IMG/VR virus record: IMGVR_UViG_2744054895_000001
Span: 1 to 64,000 of that record
Direction: 5' to 3' (one strand)
Source of the DNA: a virus
Taxonomy: Duplodnaviria > Caudoviricetes
Length of the DNA: 64,000 bases
The notes below the pieces were generated by a model. That model was given only the letters and a program-made list of their open reading frames with translations. It did not search any database and was not told the origin of the DNA. The stretch's first letter is position 1, and every line of letters starts with the position of its first letter. This document shows positions 9,055-63,572 of the stretch, piece after piece. The position numbers and the translations under genes are program-made.

Positions 9055-9333
9055 CTACTTGCAGGCGGGGTCGAGGACCGTCGAGACGCTGCCGTAGGGG
9101 CCGTCCTGGTGGTACAAGGTGGTGACGCGGACCCCGGTACCAGCCAGGCACTTGGTGGCGCCGTTACCGAAGCCGTCGGGCATCGTGAACACCAGTGCCG
9201 AGCTGTTGTCGGTGCCCGAGCGGGGGGCGTCGCGCCACGGCTCGGTGTACTTCTCACCGGGGTCGCACGCGGTGAGCGCTGTGCCGAGCAGGACGGCGGC
9301 GAGGGCGATGACGGTGGTTCTGCGGCGGATCAT
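9055..9333 (-). CDS. Putative lipoprotein
   Basis: Basic N-terminus, hydrophobic stretch and lipobox LTAC. Confidence 0.7.
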   Translation of the reverse strand: MIRRRTTVIALAAVLLGTALTACDPGEKYTEPWRDAPRSGTDNSSALVFTMPDGFGNGATKCLAGTGVRVTTLYHQDGPYGSVSTVLDPACK

Positions 9334-10109
9334 GCTGCTTGCTCCAGGCGGTAGACGGGGTTGTTAGCGCGTGCTTCGTCGATGGCTGCGAGCGGCTTCT
9401 GGCGCCAGCGCAGGGCGTACCGGCGGCAGTTGGCGCAGGTCTTGTGGGTGCAGCCGAGCAGTGGTGGCCGATGGCGGGCGTGGAAGCTCCAGGCCATGGA
9501 GTCCGACGAGGTAAGCAGGTGACCTACTCGCCTGAGGCCCGTGATCTTGAAGCCGAATCCGTGGACGCGGATGCCTCTATCGGTGGCGTCCGTGATGATG
9601 TCGGCGGCTTCCTCCATGTGCTGGCGTCGGCAGACGGAGCCGACACCAACGATCGGTTCGGCGGCCAGGTCGACGCCAGCCTTCTCGTACAGGTCGGCGC
9701 AGTGCTGGTAGTCGGCGCGTTCCCAACCTTGTAGGACAGGGATGAAGGGGAGGTCGGGAGCCGCGGCTTTGAGTTCGAGGTAGTTGTTGACGGTGCGGTG
9801 CTGGTGCTCGGTGACGGTCAGCCCGGTCTTCTGGGTGATCCACGGCTCGCACATCCAGTCCTGGGGGCTTGCCCACTGGAGCTGGCCGATCTCTTCGCTG
9901 TAACGGCGTACCGCTGCGATGTACGTGGCGAGGCTGATGGTCCACTCGCCGTGCATGGAGATCTCGGTGAAGCCTCCGCTGTCAAGGGCCCACCTGGTGA
10001 GGGCTCTGGGAAAGGTCTTGCGACCAATGAGGCGGCGGTGCGAGACGAACAGTGGGACGTTGGCGTTGCCGAGCCAGGAAGGAATGTGCGTTCCGAGGAA
10101 GAACGTCAC
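9330..10109 (-). CDS. dpdA: DpdA-like 7-deazaguanine DNA transglycosylase (TGT fold)
   Basis: [43 protein letters not shown] motifs; coupled to a YhhQ-like gene. Confidence 0.75.
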
Positions 10110-12987: not shown

Positions 12988-13947
12988 TCAGGCGGCTCGG
13001 CGGGTGATGGATGGGTTGGCTGCCCACTCCGCGATCGAGGGGCCGGGGTCGGCGCCTTCCTCGGCCCACTCGCAGGTGGTGCACAGGCGGCCGGCGGTTG
13101 AGGCTCGCTGCTTGGGTGGGCGTTCGCCCCACTTGCAGGCGGTGATTCCTCGGGCCTTGACCTGTTCTTCTAGGGCCCGGATGTGCTGGGCGGTCTCGGG
13201 GAACCAGAAGGCGATCTCGTCGAGTTCACCGGGCTTGGCGAAGGCTCCGCACAGGCACTCGCCGGACATGTGGATCAGGTCGCTCACTTCGTTGCGGGGG
13301 ACCTGGTGCAGTGCGCGGTAGTCGCGCATGTGGTCGTTGGTCCAGTGCACGATGGGCGAGGCCCAGACGATGCTTCCTTCGCGGTCGATCTCGTTGGCGT
13401 TGCGCCAGCGTCGGGACGACTCGAAGACGCGCATGCCGGCGAGGAAGATGACGCGCTGTCGGAAGGGGTTGCTGACGAACTGGTTGCGGACCTTGCGGAG
13501 TGCCCGTTCCTTCAAGCGGGTGTACATCATCTGGTGTCCGGCAGGGCCGGGGAAGCCCTTCCAGACGGGCTCGCCTTCGTGCTTGCCCTTGCTGGCGATG
13601 ACCTCGCCGCGGACGAGCTCGTCGTAGCTGTGGGGTGGGAAGGCTTCGATCAGCGGGACGTTCAGGTCGTCGGCGGTGGTGCGGACGAACTCGCGGGTCT
13701 TCTCGATGCCGATCGTGGTGTTGACGTGTACGGCGTGGGTGATGCGGTCGCGGACCAGGTGCAGCATGGTGGTGGAGTCGTTGCCGCCCGAGAACAGGGC
13801 GCAGATGGCGGTGACTTCCTTGCTGTCGGCTTCGGTCTCGGCGACGGCGCGGTCGATGATTGCGTGGGACCGCTCGATGGCCTGGTCGAGGGTAAGGGCG
13901 GCTAGCGCCTCGCCGTCGTCGTCCATCTTGGCTGGCGTGGTGGCCAT
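12988..13947 (-). CDS. PAPS reductase family (PP-loop) protein
   Basis: FSGGNDS, NTTIG, GFPGP, GMR..ES..R, SPI..W, SGECLCG. Confidence 0.8.
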   Translation of the reverse strand: MATTPAKMDDDGEALAALTLDQAIERSHAIIDRAVAETEADSKEVTAICALFSGGNDSTTMLHLVRDRITHAVHVNTTIGIEKTREFVRTTADDLNVPLIEAFPPHSYDELVRGEVIASKGKHEGEPVWKGFPGPAGHQMMYTRLKERALRKVRNQFVSNPFRQRVIFLAGMRVFESSRRWRNANEIDREGSIVWASPIVHWTNDHMRDYRALHQVPRNEVSDLIHMSGECLCGAFAKPGELDEIAFWFPETAQHIRALEEQVKARGITACKWGERPPKQRASTAGRLCTTCEWAEEGADPGPSIAEWAANPSITRRAA

Positions 13948-44084: not shown

Positions 44085-45203
44085 TTAGAGGGTGCCGCCG
44101 ACCACGTGCCCGCCGGGCATGATGTGTACGCTTTCGGTCTGCTCCACGTCTGTCCCCGGCGTGGTGGTCAGGGCGACGTCGACTTCGACGTCCACGATGC
44201 CCTCCTGGTCGTCGTTGACGACCGGCCGGATGCCTGTGATGACGGCGTCCGGCTCCCACCGTGCCATGGCGTCGCGTACCGCGTCGTTGATGATGGCTGC
44301 GGCGATCGGATCGCTGGGACGGAACAGAGCAGCGGATATGTTGGAGCCGAACGCGGGCTCGCCTACGTACTCACCGGGCACGGTGGCCACCACGGCGCGT
44401 GAGCGCTGGACGAGCATCTTGTCGGGATCGGTAAGGACGGCCACCCTGCCCATGGCGTCGAGCTGGAACGGCATGCGCATTTGAACGGTGCCGCCGCCGG
44501 GGTAGCCGGCGACACTGGTGACTGTTGAAGGGTCCGCGACGGGCTGGAGCATCGAGCTACTGGTGGGACGTCCTTGCGGCCACGTCTCGGCGATGGCGGC
44601 CATGACCGCTGAGGCGTAGGTGTAGAAGGCGTCGGTACGCCGGGAGGCGTCAGCGATCGACGCGATCTTCAAGTCTCCGCCGAGGTAGAAGCTCTCCCGC
44701 AGGCTCTGGCTCAGTTCGAGCTGGACGCCTTGGCCGCGAAGGTTGCGGTTGGCGATGTTCAGGGGGTCGTTGCCGTCGAGCTCTTGCGGGGCCGCGGACA
44801 CCGTGAAGCCTGCCGCCGTGAGTCGCTGCGCTATCGCGTCCCCGAGTTCTGTGTCGCGTCCGCCGAGATAGGTAACCGGGTCGGTACCGCTGGCCCCGTG
44901 CCAGGCCACCGTCCATTCGGCGGCGCGAAGGACCCGGAAGACCGTCGGCTCATCGAATCGGGTGCTGGTGATGTGCAGCGCTGTATTACCGCTGCTCATG
45001 AGGCCCTGGAACGAGTAGAACGCGTTGTTGCTGGTGGAGGCGCAGTAGTCGGCGAGTTGCGTGGTGGGGGCCTCTATCGCACCGCCGTGGATGGCGATGT
45101 GCGCGCCACGCGCTCCGCTGACGATCCGCGACGATATGAGGTAGTCCGTGCCGAGGGCCTTGTTCGCGGCCAGGTCAGGGTAATTGGAGTAGGTGTCGGC
45201 CAA
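44085..45203 (-). CDS. Poly-gamma-glutamate hydrolase (PghP/DUF867) domain fused to gp25-like baseplate wedge domain
   Basis: AIHGGAIE, LHITSTRFDEP, HG, NIANR..GVQLELS; C-terminal PF..T.PGE...P.FGS...RWEP. Confidence 0.8.
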   Translation of the reverse strand: MADTYSNYPDLAANKALGTDYLISSRIVSGARGAHIAIHGGAIEAPTTQLADYCASTSNNAFYSFQGLMSSGNTALHITSTRFDEPTVFRVLRAAEWTVAWHGASGTDPVTYLGGRDTELGDAIAQRLTAAGFTVSAAPQELDGNDPLNIANRNLRGQGVQLELSQSLRESFYLGGDLKIASIADASRRTDAFYTYASAVMAAIAETWPQGRPTSSSMLQPVADPSTVTSVAGYPGGGTVQMRMPFQLDAMGRVAVLTDPDKMLVQRSRAVVATVPGEYVGEPAFGSNISAALFRPSDPIAAAIINDAVRDAMARWEPDAVITGIRPVVNDDQEGIVDVEVDVALTTTPGTDVEQTESVHIMPGGHVVGGTL

Positions 45204-47335: not shown

Positions 47336-47952
47336 GATCCCTCCTTGAGCTGCAACTCCACCGACACGGTCATCGCGCACCGCTGAGGAACCATCTGGCT
47401 GGTGAAGTGCGTGTATTCGATGGACAACGACGACACGTACCCGTAGTAGGAAAGGGCAGCATTCGACGTCGGGCCACCGAAGTAGAACATGCACGGAAGC
47501 GACTGCATCGGCTGGATCTTCTTCGCGTTCGCGCCCTTCGCTGTGTCGTCGTACACGCCCGTGACGTAGTAGAACGCGTCCACGTCGGCGAGGACGCCAC
47601 GGACTTCCGCGCCCTCACTGGAAACACCGTTCTTCCCGAAGCCCCCCGTCAGCTCGTACGTGCGGTCGTAGAGCAGGCTGAACGAGAGCTGCCCGATCCC
47701 GGAGGCCCCGAGATAGTTGCCGTCTGTGGAACGCTGGTCCGCCGAGAGGACCGCGCTGGCACTGTGGCTGACGCTGATCGTGGTCGGGTTGAAGAGGAAG
47801 TCCACACGGCGCCCGCTCTTGGCGGACGGGCCGACAAGCGGCGCGCCTTGCAGGATAGCTCCGCGCCAGTATGTCTGCGGGTGCCGCTGGAGGCCGAGCC
47901 GCGGAACGGATGTCATGCGGCTGTCGAACTTCGGATTGCCTTTGACTGCCAT
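47332..47952 (-). CDS. Tube initiator-like protein (contractile tail)
   Basis: F.FNP..I..S, LL.DRT.E, GY..S.S..YT.F...MVP.R motifs; between tape measure and LysM genes. Confidence 0.7.
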   Translation of the reverse strand: MAVKGNPKFDSRMTSVPRLGLQRHPQTYWRGAILQGAPLVGPSAKSGRRVDFLFNPTTISVSHSASAVLSADQRSTDGNYLGASGIGQLSFSLLYDRTYELTGGFGKNGVSSEGAEVRGVLADVDAFYYVTGVYDDTAKGANAKKIQPMQSLPCMFYFGGPTSNAALSYYGYVSSLSIEYTHFTSQMVPQRCAMTVSVELQLKEGS

Positions 47953-50900
47953 CAGACACCCACTCCCAACTGCTTGATCCGGTTGTCTGCTGCGATGTAG
48001 TCAACGACCTTCTTGGCGGCGTCAGACGCTGCCCGATCGGACATCGAGCCGTTGACGTTGATCTGAATGGCGCCCTGGGCGAAGGAGAGCGACACGCCGC
48101 CGCCGGTTCCAACGCCGCCGGAAGCGGCGGACGCTCCGGCCGGCGAGACGACGTTGACTGAGTCCTTGATGAGCGCCTGACGGATCGTTTCGGCTTTGGC
48201 TGCCGGAATGATCATCTCACCCTTGTGGACCCGGGCGTCGAGGTCCTGAGGGATCTCCCAGGCGCCGGAGGCGTACCAGTGGGGATTGCGCTTTTGCCAC
48301 AGCTCCCACGCCTTGGACGGCTTACCGTAGTCCGGCCGGCCGGCAATGTAGTCCAGACCCCATTCGATCTGTGTTGCAGGGTTGGTCCGCCAGTCCTTGC
48401 CCTTGGAGGCCATTTTCTCGGCAGGGAGGCTCTGCGCAATTCCGTACGCGCCGGAACTGGGGTTCTTCGCCTTATGGTTCCAGTTCGACTCGTGCTCCCA
48501 CAGTTGAAAGAGGGCGTCCCATTCCTTCCCTGTCCAGCCCCTCTGGGCCGCGAGCTTCTTGCCCAGAGCGACGTTGCCCTTGGGATTCGAGGGCGCGCTG
48601 GAGACGGCAGTGGAACTCTCGGCGTTGGTCGACTCCCCCGTACCACTGGTGCGTGGTCCCATCGAGTAGCCGGATCCGCGGGCCAGTGCCGCGGTTAGGG
48701 CGTCGATCTCGTTCTGGCCGATGCTGCTGCCACTGCCGCCGTACCAGCCAGCGTTCCCGGCGCCGGCCTCGTCGTCGGTCTGCTTGGTGTCCGTGTTGTA
48801 GCTGGACAGCGCGCCGACCCCGCTGGCCACCCGGCGGACCTCCTTGATCTCGCCCAAGGTGAACGACCGCACACGAACGTCCAGGCCGGTGCGCGGCGCC
48901 TCGACGAGCTTGCCGCTGCCGATCGCCATCATCACGTGGCCAGGTTCGGGGAAGAGCAGGTCACCGGGCTGGATATGCTGCTTGTCGACCTCGACGCCCA
49001 CCTTCATCTGCTGCTGCGAGGTACGCGGCAGGTTGATGCCGGCCTGCCGATAGGCCCACGAAGTCAGGCCCGAGCAGTCGAAGCCGTGCTTGGGGTCCTC
49101 GGCACCCCACACGTAGGGGACACCGACCTGACCGAGCGCAGCCTGGATCGCCGACGACGCGTTGCCGTTCGCGACGTGGCCAGCCGTGGCGCTGGACGAC
49201 TTCTCGCCGCTGGAAGACGACGATGCCGTTGCGCCGCCGGCACCACCGCCGATGTTGATGGGGAGCAGGCTCTTGCCGAGGTTCCAGAGCGACTTGATCT
49301 TGTTGATCGGCCCCTTCGTGGCGGTCGCCCATGCTCCCGAGGCGCCCACGATCTGCTTAACACCAGGCAGTTCGAGGAAGCCGTTGATCGCTGCCTCGAA
49401 CTTCTGCACCGCCTTGGTGGCGGTCTCCAGGTTGTGGGCGAAGGAGTCACCCATGACGGCGTCGTGCTGCCGTTCCTGGGCTTCGAAGGTCTTCCGTGTC
49501 TGTCCCAGGCTTTCCGAGACGCCGTACTTGGTCAGCTTCTTGCGGGCCGCGTCGCCCTTGCTGCCGGTCTGGGCAGCCTGCGCGATGAGCTCGTCGGCCG
49601 ATCCGGAGGTCATGCCAGAGTTCTTGAGGAGTGTGTTCCTCCCCCGCATGTACTCCTTCAGGTTGTCGACCGTCTCGGCGTCCCACCCGGACGCCTGTCC
49701 GAGCTGGTCGATGTTGTAGTCGAGCGCCTGGCCGCTGGCGGTGGCTGCCGCGAACTTCTTGGACGAGATGGACGTCGTTCCGAAGGTCCGCTTCATGATG
49801 CTGTCAGCGAGCGTGCCGATTCCTGCCGCCTTGCCGCCCGCACCGATGGTGCGTCCGTATCCGAGACGCTGAGCCGCCAATGATGCCTGCGGGTTGTAGA
49901 CGCCGGAGTACAGCTTGGCGCCGGTCTCGGCATCCAAGCCGGCGACGTAGGAGGCACCGAAGGCTCTCCCGCGGACAGCAGCCTGCGCAGAAGTGCCATA
50001 GGTCAGGCCGAAGTTTTTGTCCAACAGGAAGTTAGCGTTGCTCGCATCCTCTGTGGACTTCGCGACGACCATGCCGTAGCTGTGGTCGCGAATCTGGTTC
50101 TTCCAGCCCCACTTGTCGTAGCTGTTCGGGGCGCCGCCGGAAGCGATATAAGCCCAGTTGGTGTACCGGTCCATCTCTTCCATCTGCGGGCGCATGCGGT
50201 CGCCGTACTTGACCGCCTGCCCGTAGACCGCGCCCAGTGGTCCCTTGAAGTCTGCGGCCTTCTGGCTGGCGACCATGGCCGCGGCGTTCTGGCTCTCGCC
50301 AGCCGGCACCGTGGCGCCGAACCCTCCAGGGGGCGGAACAGACGAACCGTTCCCAGAGCTTCCACCTCCGCCTCGGCCACGTCCGCCGGAGTTTCCGCCT
50401 CCGAGATTGAAGACGGTGCCGTTACGGGAGGCGTAGAAGCCACTGCCGGCGACGTAGGCGCTCGACAGGCCGGTCGCCCGGTTGTAGGCCCACATCCGTT
50501 GACCGGCACGCAGACCCCACGTCGTGTGGTCCGCGGCGTCCTGCCTGCGTATCGCTTCGTCGAACAGTGACCCGTAGTAGGCGTCAGCGTTGGCCTGTCG
50601 CGCCTGAGCGACTCGGTCAGGCGTCATACGAGCCATCAGGTCCGGGTTTATCCCTGGTGTGCGGCGCTGGTGACGGGCCTGACGAGCGGCTGCACGGGCC
50701 TGGGCAGCGGCTTGCGACGCGGACATGTTCTGCGTGTACTGCTGGCTCGCTTGCGCCCCGTACGTGCTCGCCCACGCCTGCTGGGCGTCCAAACCCTGCT
50801 GGTACACCGACTGCTGCCGCTGTGCCCGAGTCTGCGCGGCCTGCTGCTGCATCTGCGCACGCATCTGTGCCCGCGCCTGGCGGGCAGCCTCACGTGCGTC

Positions 50901-51410
50901 TGCCGCTGCCCGCGACGCGGACAGATGTCCGGAAACAGCGTCGCCGTGACCGCCCCATGTCGGCTGCGCGTTGAGGATGCGCTGGGTGAACGCTTCCTGC
51001 CGAGCCGCCCGCGATGCGCCGATGCTCCGGGTGGCGTCCATCTGCGCCTGGTGGCGAGCCGCCAGACGGTCGGCGAGAGGGCCTGTGTAGACGCGGCCGG
51101 TGGTGGGATGCGTGAAGACACCGCCGGTCTGGGTGACGGTGTTCGCCGGCGGGTGGGAGATCGGTGCCGGGTTGATGCGCGTGGTTTGGTTGGCCGCTGG
51201 GAACGCCTGCGCGGGCAGTCCTCGGAAGGCCGCGCCTCGGGTGGCCGAGTTGATCGCGCCCTGGAGGGCCCGGTTGAGGGCGGTGATGTTGGCACCGAGC
51301 TTGCCGATGTCGCTGGCGACCTTGTCGGCCGCGCGCTGCATCCCATTGGTGCCAAGGAGGCGACCCCCGAAGGTGGGCTCTCCGCGGTTGATCTCGTTGT
51401 CTTCAGCCAC
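47952..51410 (-). CDS. Tape measure protein with NlpC/P60 and lytic transglycosylase domains
   Basis: Long helical protein; G.PYVWG..FDCSGL..LPRTS..PGDLLF..GHV; ES.W...A.NP.SGAYG.AQ.LP. Confidence 0.85.
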   Translation of the reverse strand: MAEDNEINRGEPTFGGRLLGTNGMQRAADKVASDIGKLGANITALNRALQGAINSATRGAAFRGLPAQAFPAANQTTRINPAPISHPPANTVTQTGGVFTHPTTGRVYTGPLADRLAARHQAQMDATRSIGASRAARQEAFTQRILNAQPTWGGHGDAVSGHLSASRAAADAREAARQARAQMRAQMQQQAAQTRAQRQQSVYQQGLDAQQAWASTYGAQASQQYTQNMSASQAAAQARAAARQARHQRRTPGINPDLMARMTPDRVAQARQANADAYYGSLFDEAIRRQDAADHTTWGLRAGQRMWAYNRATGLSSAYVAGSGFYASRNGTVFNLGGGNSGGRGRGGGGSSGNGSSVPPPGGFGATVPAGESQNAAAMVASQKAADFKGPLGAVYGQAVKYGDRMRPQMEEMDRYTNWAYIASGGAPNSYDKWGWKNQIRDHSYGMVVAKSTEDASNANFLLDKNFGLTYGTSAQAAVRGRAFGASYVAGLDAETGAKLYSGVYNPQASLAAQRLGYGRTIGAGGKAAGIGTLADSIMKRTFGTTSISSKKFAAATASGQALDYNIDQLGQASGWDAETVDNLKEYMRGRNTLLKNSGMTSGSADELIAQAAQTGSKGDAARKKLTKYGVSESLGQTRKTFEAQERQHDAVMGDSFAHNLETATKAVQKFEAAINGFLELPGVKQIVGASGAWATATKGPINKIKSLWNLGKSLLPINIGGGAGGATASSSSSGEKSSSATAGHVANGNASSAIQAALGQVGVPYVWGAEDPKHGFDCSGLTSWAYRQAGINLPRTSQQQMKVGVEVDKQHIQPGDLLFPEPGHVMMAIGSGKLVEAPRTGLDVRVRSFTLGEIKEVRRVASGVGALSSYNTDTKQTDDEAGAGNAGWYGGSGSSIGQNEIDALTAALARGSGYSMGPRTSGTGESTNAESSTAVSSAPSNPKGNVALGKKLAAQRGWTGKEWDALFQLWEHESNWNHKAKNPSSGAYGIAQSLPAEKMASKGKDWRTNPATQIEWGLDYIAGRPDYGKPSKAWELWQKRNPHWYASGAWEIPQDLDARVHKGEMIIPAAKAETIRQALIKDSVNVVSPAGASAASGGVGTGGGVSLSFAQGAIQINVNGSMSDRAASDAAKKVVDYIAADNRIKQLGVGV

Positions 51411-51576
51411 TGGAAGCCGCCGCCTCCCTTCTTCCCTTGACCCAGACCGCCAGGTCGCGCCAGTACTCACGCTCCTGGACGGTCAGGTTCTTGATCTCGC
51501 TGAGTTGCCACTCGGGGTGGGCGTAGGCGAGCGTGGTGTAGTCAGCCCGTGCTGCTCGGGCGTCAGAAATCGCGAA
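51403..51576 (-). CDS. Tail chaperone C-terminal extension (no start codon; likely reached by +1 frameshift)
   Basis: DYTTLAYAHPEWQLSEIKNLTVQEREYW frame is bounded by an upstream TAG and contains no ATG/GTG/TTG. Confidence 0.6.
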   Translation of the reverse strand, partial: FAISDARAARADYTTLAYAHPEWQLSEIKNLTVQEREYWRDLAVWVKGRREAAASSG

Positions 51577-52439: not shown

Positions 52440-52802
52440 TTACTTTATGACTGCGTAGGAATTCGGACCGTAACTGTCCGCGACCTTGAAGTCCCATCCC
52501 TCGTGCGCGAACGTGAGCTGGGAAACGGCGAATGTATTGCTTCCAGCGTCGAGGTCACCAAAGGCAACCGAGGTGGGCCAAGCGTTGTAGAGGCGCCATA
52601 CCGCCTTTACTGCTGCCTTGCTCTTGGTAACCGGGTGGTCGATGAGCATGATGTCGATCGTGGCCCGGAATTCTGAGCCGGTATCGGATCCGGATCCGTT
52701 GCCCTGCATGACGTCGAAGAGCTGGTACATCCAGTTCACGAGTTTCTGGTCGCCCGGCATCATTCCCTTGGAAAGGGTGACGGGGCTGAAGTCGCTCTGA
52801 CC
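52440..52802 (-). CDS. Tail tube protein (gp19-like), exon 2
   Basis: GQSDFSPVTLSKG...LYNAWP...DLDA...L.FAHEG; joins exon 1 to give 194 aa. Confidence 0.85.
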   Translation of the reverse strand, partial: GQSDFSPVTLSKGMMPGDQKLVNWMYQLFDVMQGNGSGSDTGSEFRATIDIMLIDHPVTKSKAAVKAVWRLYNAWPTSVAFGDLDAGSNTFAVSQLTFAHEGWDFKVADSYGPNSYAVIK

Positions 52803-53100
52803 CAGAGGCTGTTACCTCTCCGGTTTCCCGGAGCGGGCTGGTCATTTCTGCCAGCCTCTCGCATTCTCATGCGAGTTCGGACTCTATCTTCACCCCAGAG
52901 GGGTGTCCCGTACATAGTCTCTGGACCTTCCCGTCGGTTTCCCAGGCGGGCTCGGCTGCTGATTTTCCCTACCCTCGGACTTCTCAAGCCGTCGCGCTCA
53001 GGCTTTCGCCCCACGCTGTGGCGCCGAGGTCTAACAGGACGTTCCAGCAATTCTCGGGATTTTCACTCGCTACTTACGCAGCGAGGGCCCAGTCAAGTTG
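52803..53100 (-). ncRNA. Group I intron (298 nt, no homing endonuclease) in the tail tube gene
   Basis: Exon-terminal U with P1 GCCU/GGGC; P AAUUGCUGGAA, Q AAUCAGCAG, R CAGAGACUA, S AAGAUAGAGUC; terminal G; removal restores KMP|GQSDF. Confidence 0.88.
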
Positions 53101-53322
53101 AGGCATTTTCTGAGTGGTCGTGTTCATGCCGCCGGCCCTGTATGCGATGACGTCAGTCGTCACGGAAAGGCCGGAAACCGACATGAAGCCGAGCTTTGGA
53201 TAGGCAGAGGACAGCTTGCCGACCTGGCTGATCTGGACGTGGAACTTGAACGAGCGAAGGGGGTCCGTCTGTCGCGAGGCCAGGCTCTGGCTTTGCGAGA
53301 CGGTCTTGAGGGTGGATGCCAT
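53101..53322 (-). CDS. Tail tube protein (gp19-like), exon 1
   Basis: DPLRSFKF.V..GF..VSGL...YR.GG.N....KMP. Confidence 0.85.
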
Positions 53323-53434: not shown

Positions 53435-54985
53435 TTATGAGGATTCGGTGACCGTCGCGCCACCGTCGTACTGGCTGATGTGGATTGCGACGTACTCGGC
53501 CGGCCGCGCCACAGCAATGCCCACGTCGATGTGGACCTCTCCGTTGTCGACGGTGGTCGCGGTGTTGTTGGTGTCGTCACAGATCACCTGGAACGCGGTG
53601 TCGGGCGTCGAGCTGGCGAACATCCCCGCCTGCGCCTGGGTGGTGAGCTGCTGGCTGAGGGTGGCCGAGATGGAGTGCCACAGCTCGGGGGTGTTGGGTG
53701 CGAACACCGCGCTGCGGGTGAGGTCCACGAGGATCTTGCGGGTGTACGTGAGCAGCCGGCGGACGGCGACGTACCGGTCTGGGTAGCCCGACTTCAAGGT
53801 CCTGGCGCCCATGATGCAGATGCCCGCCTGGGGGATCTGCCTGATGATGTTGATACCCCACGCGTTGAGGTTGTCGAGCTGAGAGTTCGTGAACCGCAGC
53901 TCGGTGGAGTAAACCCCGACGAGACGGCTGAGCGTGCCTGCCGCCGACTGGTGTGGGCCGTAGAGCGTGTCGGTCTGGGCGAACCTGCCGAGCACTGCAC
54001 CACCGGGCGGCAGAGTGCGGGTGGCACCAGCGGCGATGGAGGACGGGTCTGCGGACACCAGCCACGGACCGTAGACGGCTGCGTAGGAGCTGGCCTTCAG
54101 TGGCGGCGGGCTGGTGCTGGAGTTGGCAGCCGGCGAGAGCTTGGCGTAGGCGGTGACGGCGGAAGGCACGTCCAATGACGGCGTCTGTGGTGCGTCGACT
54201 ACGACGAAGGCGTATCCGTAGTCCTCCGCCCAGGTGATGACGGCGTTGAGGATGGAAGTGTCGGTGACGCCCGGCAGGTTGATATTGACGATCTCACCTG
54301 TTGATTCGAGCTGCTTGGTCGCGGCGACCAGGTCGGGGGTGGCGCTGCCGTCGATGCCGCCAGTCAGGGGCGTACCGGTCTGCACGGCGGGCGTGATCGG
54401 TGTGCTCCATGCGTCGGTGGCGATGTAGTCGGCTTTGACGAATGCCGAGCCGTTGACTGGGGAGTTGATCATCGCGACCAGGTTCCGGGAGTCCGCCGGG
54501 TCGAGGCTGACGTCGTTGTATCGGTCGGCGATGTAGGTGTCCGTGGTCCCGCCGACCTTGACAGCCAGGTTGAAGCGGCCGGCACCTGTGTTGGCGTCGG
54601 TGACGTCGATGTAGACCTTGTTGCCGAACGCGCCGGCTGCCCTGGCCGTGAGGGTCAGGAGGGGCTCGGGGGTGGCCTGGCGGTCGTTGAGGGTGACCGC
54701 CGCGGCGACCGAGTCGGCAGGTACGGCACGGCAGATGTACGCCTTGCCGCCGCCGTTGGAGAAGTAGGAGTACACCGCGTAAGGCAGCAGGTCTGTGCCG
54801 GTTCCCCAGCCGCCGTAGACGAGGTTGAACTGCGACCAGGAGGTGATCAGCGTGGGCACGGCCGGACCGAAGTTGTGGGCGCCGACGAACGCTGCGATGG
54901 CCTCGCCGGGGTTGGCGGTGACCGGGTTGGAGATCGCATCCAGTGTCTCGTCCACGTAGATGCCGGGGCGCAGGAAAGTCGCCAT
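53435..54985 (-). CDS. Tail sheath protein
   Basis: RPGIYV.E, P.LITSW, AAVY.PW, PP.G...G, LN..GIN.IR, GARTL, YV.VRR, P.EY. Confidence 0.92.
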   Translation of the reverse strand: MATFLRPGIYVDETLDAISNPVTANPGEAIAAFVGAHNFGPAVPTLITSWSQFNLVYGGWGTGTDLLPYAVYSYFSNGGGKAYICRAVPADSVAAAVTLNDRQATPEPLLTLTARAAGAFGNKVYIDVTDANTGAGRFNLAVKVGGTTDTYIADRYNDVSLDPADSRNLVAMINSPVNGSAFVKADYIATDAWSTPITPAVQTGTPLTGGIDGSATPDLVAATKQLESTGEIVNINLPGVTDTSILNAVITWAEDYGYAFVVVDAPQTPSLDVPSAVTAYAKLSPAANSSTSPPPLKASSYAAVYGPWLVSADPSSIAAGATRTLPPGGAVLGRFAQTDTLYGPHQSAAGTLSRLVGVYSTELRFTNSQLDNLNAWGINIIRQIPQAGICIMGARTLKSGYPDRYVAVRRLLTYTRKILVDLTRSAVFAPNTPELWHSISATLSQQLTTQAQAGMFASSTPDTAFQVICDDTNNTATTVDNGEVHIDVGIAVARPAEYVAIHISQYDGGATVTESS

Positions 54986-62285: not shown

Positions 62286-63129
62286 CTAGTTCGTCTCGGC
62301 GATGACGACCGAAGCGTCGGTGATCAAGCCGAGCCCGAAGATCGAATACCAGCTCAGCAGGTGTTCACGACCGAAGTCCTGGACGCCGCCGTCCCTCAAC
62401 TCGACCGGCAGGGAGATCGCATGACCGAAGGCATTGTCACCAATGCAAATACTCTGGTAGACGTCGGCAGGGGTCGCCCCGTTGCCGTTTCCGATCTTCT
62501 TGGTTTGGGTGGTCTCGATGAAGATCACGTCATCGATCCTGCCGATCTCGCCGAGGCTGAAGGCCCCCGGCTGCGCGTACTTCGAGGACTCGATCCAGGT
62601 CGGGTCCTCACGCAGCCAGCGCGATTGATGCGGATGCACGAAACACACGTAAACATCGCCCAATCGCGGGATGTTTCGGGTCGCGAGGGTCTCGACCATG
62701 TCCTTGACCAGGGCGGAGGTGAACCGGTGGTTGCCGGTCAGGCCGGCGCGGTTCGGGGCCGGGGCGCCCTTGTCGTAGGGGGAGATGCGGGTAATCGCGT
62801 TACCCGTGGTGGCGAACTTGTCGTAGCCGTAGAGCACGGAGGTGGCCTGGAGGAGCGTGTCCCGCGCCTGCTCGTCAAGGTACTTCGCCATGTTCCGCCC
62901 CAGGAGGCGAGAGCCGGACGCGAGCACGTCATCGAAGGACGAGTTGAGCAGGAGCTCGGAGACGGCGATGGCGTAGCCGTGCTCACTGACAGTAATCGAG
63001 AACTGACTGGCCGTCAGGGCATGGGTTTCCATGCGGACACCTTCGACGAGCTGCGAGGCGTCGCCGAGGTTGTCGTAACGCATGAAGTGGATCACGAGGC
63101 CGGGGCTGACCCCCAGCTCAGTCTTCTTG
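62286..63129 (-). CDS. Major capsid protein (N4-gp56-like), exon 2
   Basis: KKTELGVSPG..FMRY..L.EG..EHG..HP.Q...LR.D..GEIG..V.FIET..DFGR. Confidence 0.88.
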
Positions 63130-63417
63130 CAGCTCTGTTACCTCTCCCCTCAGGGAGCGGGCTGGTCATTTCTGCCAGCCTCTGCATCTTTCCCATTGAT
63201 GCAGGCCAGACTATATCTTCATCTCCAGTTCCAGTGGGCCGAAGCACCTAGCCACTGGGCCTGTTGGAGATGCCACCCGTGTAGTCGTTACGGAGTCCCA
63301 GGTGTTGGGTTCCCTCGGTATTCCCCGTGGTGACGAATGAGTGCTACGAGGAGGAGGGGTTCACCGATACAGGGCGGTTTTCACTGACAGGTCGCCCTGT
63401 CAGGCGGCCAATATCAA
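63130..63417 (-). ncRNA. Group I intron (288 nt, no homing endonuclease) in the major capsid gene
   Basis: P1 GCGGU/GCCGC; P AUCGGUGAA, Q AAUACCGAG, R GUAACGACUA, S AAGAUAUAGUC; P3 CCGCCC/GGGUGG; terminal G; removal restores FAV-KKTE. Confidence 0.9.
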
Positions 63418-63572
63418 ACCGCGAACTGCTCGAAGCGCAGGATCGGCATCGACTGGAACAGAATTTCCTTCGACCAGAGTTCCTGGATGGCCGGGGAAAG
63501 CTGCGAGTTCGCGCCGGCGTAGTTGGTCGGAGACGCCGACAGACGCGGCGTACCGGTGATGGCAGAAGCCAT
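63418..63572 (-). CDS. Major capsid protein, exon 1
   Basis: MASAITGTP...IQELWSKEILFQSMPILRFEQFA; joined product 332 aa. Confidence 0.85.

Follow-up and report, generated by a model that had tools for sequence, protein, structure and literature searches.

Group I introns that interrupt virion genes of phages have been described in several systems. Here we describe such an intron in the tail tube gene of a Streptomyces prophage (positions 52803–53100), together with a second intron in the major capsid gene. The window, which is the whole stretch of DNA analyzed, is the first 64 kb (64,000 nucleotides, nt) of the 94,789-nt IMG/VR record IMGVR_UViG_2744054895_000001, and all features of the window given below with coordinates are on the minus strand. 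Among the described systems, the Cluster J mycobacteriophages include LittleE, with an intron in the capsid gene, and BAKA and Optimus, with an intron in a minor tail protein gene (Pope et al. 2013, PMC3706429). Splicing of these introns was confirmed by reverse transcription-polymerase chain reaction and is reported to be efficient in late expression (PMC3706429). The tail intron of Cluster J is small (265 bp) and contains no open reading frame (ORF), and the tube intron is likewise ORF-less. The U at the end of the 5′ exon, the G at the end of the intron, and the presence in only some close relatives are further likenesses (PMC3706429). Unlike Cluster J as far as that report describes it, both introns are present in one genome here and neither has an endonuclease gene, and the tail host is a contractile-tail tube protein (T4 gp19 family) instead of a siphovirus minor tail protein. 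The Cluster J introns and the tube intron are not close sequence relatives, because a blastn search of the tube intron against GenBank phages gave no mycobacteriophage match.

Introns in tail tube genes themselves are in print for orf142 of phage Twort (PMC11878797) and for Bacillus cereus-group prophages (PMC2504315). The tube intron described here has a host gene of this kind, and the Bacillus cereus group introns are described as having early stop codons that end translation in P1/P2 before the catalytic core, as is found in the tube intron (PMC2504315). In contrast to the present case, the hosts of Twort and of the Bacillus prophages are low-GC (guanine plus cytosine) Firmicutes, and Twort is described with three introns in one gene. 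No sequence relationship of the tube intron to the Twort or Bacillus introns was found by blastn of the intron and its 3′ block against GenBank phages.

The huge gut phages called 'Jug' carry many short (about 200 nt) ORF-less introns in essential genes, several per gene, with metatranscriptome-supported splicing (PMC12880540). The family of the tube intron resembles them in consisting of many short ORF-less group I introns. The Jug introns, as reported, belong to Bacteroidota phages and lie mainly in terL, nrdD, and polymerase genes, whereas the introns described here are concentrated in capsid and portal genes on soil contigs and have their own 21-nt P9.1 hairpin. Reverse splicing into new sites through guide-exon pairing has also been reported for group I introns, and the related introns at different sites described in that work share only a few guide-complementary nucleotides, as do those described here (PMC1299323). 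That work deals with nuclear ribosomal DNA of fungi and protists, whereas the hosts here are protein-coding phage genes, and the route that we infer is drawn from five sites and two guide classes.

Tail-tube introns and capsid or tail introns are thus already published. Our literature search found no earlier report of a Streptomyces phage intron, and individual announcements of Streptomyces phage genomes state that no intron was found. With this case, Streptomyces phages join the short list of phages of high-GC hosts that have introns in virion genes.

Identity and boundaries of the tube intron

The tube gene is seen in the window as two short ORFs (53322–53074 and 52763–52440), which lie in different frames directly after the sheath gene. 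Excision of 298 nt at 52803–53100, which an earlier note on this DNA had proposed to restore the frame of a split tube gene, is exact judging from Rfam, Pfam, empty sites in relatives, and a contig that skips the segment. Exon 1 (53101–53322) has 74 codons, ends in ...QKMP with U as its last base, and covers positions 1–45 of the 134 positions of the Pfam profile PF06841 (T4 gp19 tail tube). Exon 2 (52440–52802) has 120 codons and a stop codon, starts with GQSDF..., and covers positions 46–133. The intron length equals 3 × 99 + 1 nt, and the tube exons are therefore in different frames. No ORF of at least 30 amino acids (aa) lies wholly inside the intron on its own strand.

When the window was scanned with Rfam at the gathering cut-off (50 bits for RF00028), the single match was RF00028 at 52858–53110 (68.5 bits, E 2.9e-15), covering the full model (1–253). 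The 5′ exon ends with ...GCCU (U at 53101) and the intron ends with G (52803), which obeys the junction rules of group I. Exon 1 and exon 2 match PF06841 with 31.0 bits (cut-off 28.2) and 62.6 bits, respectively, and the profile positions 45 and 46 meet at the exon join. The spliced product has 194 aa and is 56–58% identical to the uninterrupted tube proteins of the Streptomyces phages Alone3, pSt2308, and GiJojo. In the alignment with these three proteins, the join is ungapped and lies inside an identical 16-residue block.

The site was further compared among 18 related loci, comprising 10 loci from IMG/VR and 8 from Streptomyces genomes (one genome per prokaryote species scanned). In all 10 IMG/VR loci, whose exon 2 identities are 63–99%, the DNA is continuous at the intron site, and Rfam detects a group I intron in none of these tube loci. 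In three of them (L008–L010), the 12 bases on each side of the empty site are the same as the joined exon ends of the window. Since the first and last bases of the intron differ from the adjoining exon bases, the insertion is exactly 52803–53100 with no slack. One public contig (run X10) skips exactly these positions, whereas contigs of the runs X2 and X7 (about 90% identical) have the intron at the same position, and both the intron-plus and intron-less forms are present in the soil metagenome X1. We identify the element as a group I intron in a tail tube gene of the T4 gp19 type. Every feature by which membership of group I can be examined in a sequence is found in it, and its self-splicing activity is predicted.

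Fold of the tube intron

The pairings P1 (GCCU/GGGC) and P10 (GGUCAG/UUGACU), which had been proposed earlier, are present. The internal guide (53087–53096), as read from the sequence, consists of intron nt 5–10, UUGACU, pairing with GGUCAG in the 3′ exon to form P10, and nt 11–14, GGGC, pairing with GCCU in the 5′ exon to form P1, with a U-G wobble at the splice site. An in-frame UAA in the frame of exon 1 (53074–53076, intron nt 25–27) is located in the GUAA loop of the P2 hairpin (53066–53085), which has 8 bp, 6 of which change on both sides among relatives. This UAA is predicted to end translation ahead of the catalytic core.

The core (52858–53059) comprises P3, P4, P5 with a three-helix P5 extension (GAAA loop), P6, P7, P8, and P9. 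The P7 pseudoknot (within 52879–52921) pairs strand 52921–52916, with a bulged A at 52920, to strand 52883–52879, and the segment between the two strands contains P3′ and P8. The pair G52919:C52880 in P7 is the equivalent of the canonical guanosine-binding pair. In the tube intron, neither the stretch from P3′ to P8 nor that from P8 to P7′ contains a further helix (P7.1/P7.2). Downstream of the core, the P9.1 hairpin (52836–52856) has 8 bp, one bulged A, and a GAAA loop; it forms the 21-nt signature of the family, GGCTGGCAGAAATGACCAGCC, and shows compensatory changes. The P9.2 hairpin (52818–52833), also with a GAAA loop, is followed by GGUAACAG and the 3′ splice site, and all six of its pairs change on both sides.

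These changes were observed in an alignment of 11 related introns, from among the nearest relatives of the tube intron in other viral contigs, analyzed with RNAalifold. The program recovered P2, P3, P4, P5 with the three-helix extension, P6, P8, P9, P9.1, and P9.2 unprompted, and 44 of the 85 predicted pairs are kept via changes on both sides. All five P7 pairs form in each of the 11 sequences, with covariation at three. With P7 included, the fold has 13 helices and 84 pairs, and 98.3% of the 917 cells are standard pairs; when the 3′ partners were slid by 1–3 columns as a control, 31.8–44.0% were paired. Changes on both sides are found at 45 of the 84 pairs, and none of 500 shuffles reached the observed values.

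Distribution of the tube intron among relatives

The tube site is empty in 15 of the 18 related loci, and the tube gene is also uninterrupted in the three GenBank relatives Alone3, pSt2308, and GiJojo. Of the eight Streptomyces loci, five are empty; L094 and L096 share both the intron and its position with the window, and L097 contains a different intron. This presence/absence polymorphism is found among close relatives, in which the flanking exon DNA is 84–91% identical; the exon 2 protein of the window has 93–99% identity to intron-less relatives.

The introns of L094 and L096 match RF00028 with 63.9 and 62.5 bits, and they preserve P1, P10, the U of the 5′ exon, and the terminal G. They are 95.5% and 94.9% identical to the intron of the window, while their exons are 87–91% identical. 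The higher conservation of the intron than of the exons fits purifying selection on the ribozyme. In the tree of the tube gene, the close relatives form an unresolved polytomy, and the maximum-likelihood tree needs three changes, though a tree that unites the three intron-bearing alleles in one clade is not rejected (p-AU 0.19).

In L096 (positions 1501–1600; Streptomyces diastatochromogenes ATCC 21481), exon 2 has a 1-nt deletion that gives a frameshift 13 codons after the splice junction. This frameshift is either real prophage decay or a long-read assembly error.

L097 (1141–1500), in the more distant prophage of Streptomyces sp. NPDC020379, has a tube intron of 360 nt located 3 nt downstream of the site in the window. 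Rfam gives no match to it at E up to 0.01, and the intron was called because it is 76.6% identical to the tube intron of the window (nt 8–268), contains the hairpin motif, shows guide/target pairing, and restores the reading frame on removal. About 13 kb from this tube gene, the capsid gene of the same genome (L105) is in three pieces (residues 1–38, 39–312, and 313–332) and therefore contains two introns, so that the prophage has one tube intron and two capsid introns in total. The C-terminal capsid intron has the guide ACUGGGC and the target GCCU|GGU, as has the tube intron of the window. The other capsid intron lacks the exact hairpin word of the family.

The whole records of the relatives were scanned for this hairpin word, allowing up to two mismatches. 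One copy each was found in L094 and L096, in the tube intron only, and two copies were found in the L097 genome. At this setting, the L095 genome, the phages Alone3 and BRock, and four IMG/VR records (98–100% complete in three cases) gave no copy. Since relatives carry the tube copy only, no copy, or one tube and two capsid introns, the pairing of a head intron with a tail intron is an accident of the genome in the window and not a conserved design.

The capsid intron

A second intron in the head gene, which had also been claimed, is real and is located at 63130–63417. It is 288 nt long, has the guide GGCCG and the target CGGU|, and has a UGA stop codon at intron nt 2–4. Exon 1 of the major capsid gene (63418–63572) was assigned by comparison with capsid proteins, and exon 2 (62286–63129) by Pfam PF25209/PF13252 and by tblastn to the capsid genes of BRock and Alone3. 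The uninterrupted capsid protein of Alone3 (340 aa) agrees with the join FAV|KKTELG, and the capsid coding sequence of BRock is annotated as uninterrupted with the same length. The junction splits a valine codon (GU|C), with the 5′ exon ending in U and the intron in G. The RF00028 match of this intron (63182–63425, E 4.6e-8) scores 44.4 bits, below the cut-off of 50. What it has in common with the tube intron is the 3′ block, the match being limited to the last 56 nt of the latter. Apart from the tube and capsid introns, the 94,789-nt record as a whole contains no RF00028 match, and the family hairpin occurs in only two copies (up to three mismatches). We assign the capsid intron as real despite its Rfam score.

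A pipeline working at the gathering threshold would miss this intron, and the capsid gene would be annotated as two fragments. More generally, failure to recognize the introns would leave both the tube gene and the capsid gene of this phage group annotated as a pair of broken ORFs.

A wider family of related introns

The 21-nt P9.1 signature is found as an exact word in 74 IMG/VR stretches (L018–L091) from 64 viral contigs, often in two or three copies per contig. The 79 occurrences represent 77 distinct copies, because two loci overlap; as the census is based on the exact word, diverged members are missed. Each copy has the same 3′ layout, i.e., a J8/7-like AAGAUAUAGUC, the P9 hairpin, the signature hairpin, a further hairpin, GUAACA(G/A), and the exon.

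Host genes were called from the longest open frame after each copy, and frames of at least 75 aa were kept, giving 53 distinct ORFs. Pfam named 27 of them (23 capsid, 2 portal, and 2 GIY-YIG endonuclease). The other 26 have no Pfam match, and several of these are visibly wrong frames or short terminal exons. The 23 capsid ORFs belong to four families (13 PF05065, 8 PF25209/PF13252, 1 P22 coat, and 1 SU10). Fourteen of the 79 downstream ORFs match the capsid type of the window and start at capsid residues 33/34, 52, 71, 130, and 306; thus one capsid family has been invaded at five or more positions. No tube gene is found as a host among the IMG/VR signature copies.

On one contig (L027:804–1421 / L055:1093–1419), a GIY-YIG/NUMOD3 ORF follows a family intron, and a second family intron is 289 nt away. 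This ORF is the only endonuclease seen with the family.

The tube intron is 78–88% identical to capsid-gene introns of the family over nt 8/34–293 (87.7% for L031), and its first ~33 nt, the guide region, match only in the copies with the ACUGGGC guide (L031, L032, and L053). Among GenBank phages, the tube intron as a blastn query matched Vibrio, Pseudomonas, and Lactococcus phages only weakly and in part (E about 0.3). For the 3′ block, partial matches were found in Lactococcus AM phages (78% over 59 nt, E 4e-4), in Brochothrix phages, and in some others. Neither search found a close relative of the tube intron in a cultured phage. The introns thus appear to form a sizeable ORF-less family, seemingly undescribed so far, that is concentrated in the capsid genes of soil viral contigs.

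Guides and targets

The guide ACUGGGC with the target GCCU|GGU is common to the tube intron and to the capsid C-terminal introns (...REHALA|WY...) in L031, L032, L053, and L105. The tube and capsid GCCU|GGU sites are in different proteins and in different codon phases. The guide GGCCG with the target CGGU| is found at the capsid site of the window, at the same site in L073, at a second capsid site in L025, and in the tube gene of L097. The CGGU| junctions of L025 and L073 were checked against the capsid protein. In the tube gene of L097, synonymous codons (...CCC GGU|CAG...) create the CGGU| target 3 nt from the site used in the window. Two fixed guides are therefore reused at five checked sites, three with CGGU| and two with GCCU|.

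Such reuse is the pattern expected when a target is chosen by RNA pairing, as in reverse splicing, unlike the long recognition site of an endonuclease. This argument is only suggestive, since the P1 pairing is needed for splicing whatever the route. Reverse splicing of group I introns is said to have been studied experimentally by Roman and Woodson. Two guides reused at unrelated sites offer a tractable natural system in which to study how introns of this group colonize new sites unaided by an endonuclease.

Proposed mechanism and alternatives

The tube intron is very probably a functional, ORF-less, self-splicing group I intron, i.e., a selfish mobile element with predicted constitutive splicing and not a regulator. 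The pre-mRNA would fold into the ribozyme, in which exogenous guanosine in the P7 pocket would attack after the U of ...GCCU held in P1 by GGGC. P10 would align the 3′ exon, and ligation after the terminal G would restore the 194-aa frame. Ribosomes would be halted before the core by the UAA 25 nt into the intron. The intron would be tolerated in the essential tube gene because splicing removes it. The sequences themselves show the identity and boundaries of the intron, its conserved fold, its presence/absence polymorphism, and the guide and target that it shares with capsid introns; we infer constitutive splicing in the cell and the following route of movement. The intron would most likely have arrived at the tube gene by rare guide-matched ectopic insertion, because its core is closest to the capsid-gene introns and it has the same 7-nt guide and target as the capsid C-terminal introns; after insertion, it may have been inherited or passed by recombination among related Streptomyces phages.

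Several points weigh against this account and should be noted. A single gain with vertical descent may explain the distribution as well as repeated transfer does. The contigs of X2, X7, and X10 may be from the same genomes as L094–L096, and they are not independent support. P7 (G:C, bulged A, G:C, A:U, C:G, U:A) was placed by hand by analogy with the canonical fold. The covariation test is partly circular, and the slid control is biased in favor of the nested helices, since that same alignment served to predict them. On the coding strand of the window, GCCUGGU has 10 further occurrences, none of which carries an intron, and guide matching alone therefore does not decide the site. As for homing endonucleases, HNH (PF01844), HNH_3 (PF13392), GIY-YIG (PF01541), and LAGLIDADG_3 (PF14528) have no match in the 94,789-nt record, and only these four families were searched.

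The earlier note had suggested that the two introns may serve as a post-transcriptional checkpoint on virion assembly, sensitive for instance to guanosine or Mg2+, and it had called for a survey of related phages. In such a checkpoint, splicing of the tube and capsid transcripts would be rate-limiting and would respond to guanosine triphosphate, Mg2+, or stress. Both introns do lie in late, highly expressed virion genes, the wider family is almost confined to capsid and portal genes (23 and 2 of the 27 named ORFs), and a sensor hypothesis for phage introns is in print in a general and unproven form (PMC11878797, citing Belfort 2017). However, the survey gives the checkpoint no support, as the tube intron is missing in 15 of the 18 loci and in the three GenBank relatives, and the head-plus-tail pairing is variable (in the hairpin scan, L094 and L096 have the tube copy only; five relatives' records, Alone3, and BRock have none). 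A sensor element is also missing: the Rfam scan of the whole window at E up to 1 gave only the two introns and no riboswitch, aptamer, or other element beside the tube intron, and the 112-nt upstream spacer and the intron contain nothing beyond the standard helices of a compact group I ribozyme. Published actinophage capsid and tail introns are reported to splice efficiently in late expression (PMC3706429). The bias to structural genes is equally expected from spread among homologous capsid genes or from abundant late transcripts. The concentration in virion genes is real, and it can be explained more simply by such homologous spread, by insertion where sequence conservation is highest, and, should the intron move as RNA, by the plentiful late transcripts present at the time of its release. 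We consider the checkpoint very improbable; the finding gives no evidence for a new layer of regulation, and its interest lies in the family-level pattern and in the guide reuse. An inactive ribozyme in a tube pseudogene of a defective prophage is less probable still. The record is classed as a provirus and L096 has the frameshift in exon 2, possibly an assembly error, but both exons of the window are intact with an exon 2 protein 93–99% identical to those of intron-less relatives, and the core helices, the splice-site U-G pair, the terminal G, and the P7 pocket are intact. The intron (95%) is also more conserved than the exon DNA (87–91%), and the CheckV completeness is 96%. The intron might instead protect the tube gene by interrupting a conserved site and making it immune to a site-specific endonuclease of a competitor phage, and the insertion is indeed in the most conserved stretch of the gene (the identical 16-residue block), which has been invaded twice by different introns; an 'anti-competitor weapon' is discussed in PMC11878797. 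Most relatives manage without the intron, however, and no endonuclease targeting the site was found in the record among the four families searched. We know of no endonuclease that targets this tube site, and we regard such protection as unlikely.

The selfish-element account leaves two routes of spread to be weighed. In one, spread occurs at the DNA level alone, through a trans-acting homing endonuclease of a co-infecting phage or plain homologous recombination, and the ectopic tube insertion arises by illegitimate repair of a double-strand break without reverse splicing, its ability to splice being proved only afterwards. Phage group I introns are known to spread mainly by homing (PMC11878797; PMC3984707), the GIY-YIG/NUMOD3 ORF follows one family member (L027/L055), and the flanking exon similarity of 84–91% suffices for recombination. 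None of the four tested endonuclease families is in the record, however, and the recurrence of two short guides at unrelated sites is unexpected from a long sequence-specific target, though this is suggestive only. We regard DNA-level spread as quite plausible while stopping short of calling it probable. In the other, the tube intron belongs to an ORF-less family of late virion genes (capsid, portal, and tube) of soil actinophages, and RNA-guided retargeting, by reverse splicing or an equivalent, moves the family between unrelated sites that share only 4–7 nt complementary to a few fixed guides. We put this forward tentatively, as a possibility about which we have somewhat more doubt. If it is true, the late-gene bias would follow from the mechanism, since excised intron RNA would be released from capsid transcripts when tube, portal, and capsid mRNAs are most abundant, and in two Streptomyces prophages, two guide classes would have struck one conserved codon block of the tube gene independently, at positions 3 nt apart.

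Genome context

The record is classified as a provirus in IMG/VR with a CheckV completeness of 96%, and almost all genes of the window are on the minus strand. The Pfam scan covered 42 of the 97 candidate ORFs in the window. The virion block includes a baseplate J protein, a gp25-like protein, a tape measure protein with NlpC/P60, and the capsid protein, and the sheath and tube proteins were also matched. The tail sheath gene (53435–54985; PF04984 and PF17482) is directly upstream of the tube gene with a spacer of 112 nt. The genome is assigned to a phage with a contractile tail, and its host genus is settled as Streptomyces because all eight related loci from the scan of prokaryote species are in Streptomyces genomes. 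In the replication block, PolA, class II ribonucleotide reductase (RNR), RecA, DnaB, and primase were identified. The first four are each encoded by a single ORF, in agreement with the earlier observation that polA, nrdJ, recA, and dnaB, common hosts of introns and inteins, are uninterrupted.

Other genes of the window may be mentioned. A DpdA homologue (PF23859, E 6e-100) and a nearby protein with a PAPS-reductase domain are encoded at 9330–10109 and 12988–13947, and together they suggest a 7-deazaguanine-type DNA modification module in the phage. At 44085–45203, a gp25-like baseplate wedge domain is joined in one protein with a poly-gamma-glutamate hydrolase domain (PF05908, E 8e-53), and the fusion would be a baseplate-borne depolymerase of a capsule or polymer. 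The tape-measure-like protein (47952–51470) has 1172 aa, with the NlpC/P60 peptidase domain and long low-complexity Gln/Ala repeats.

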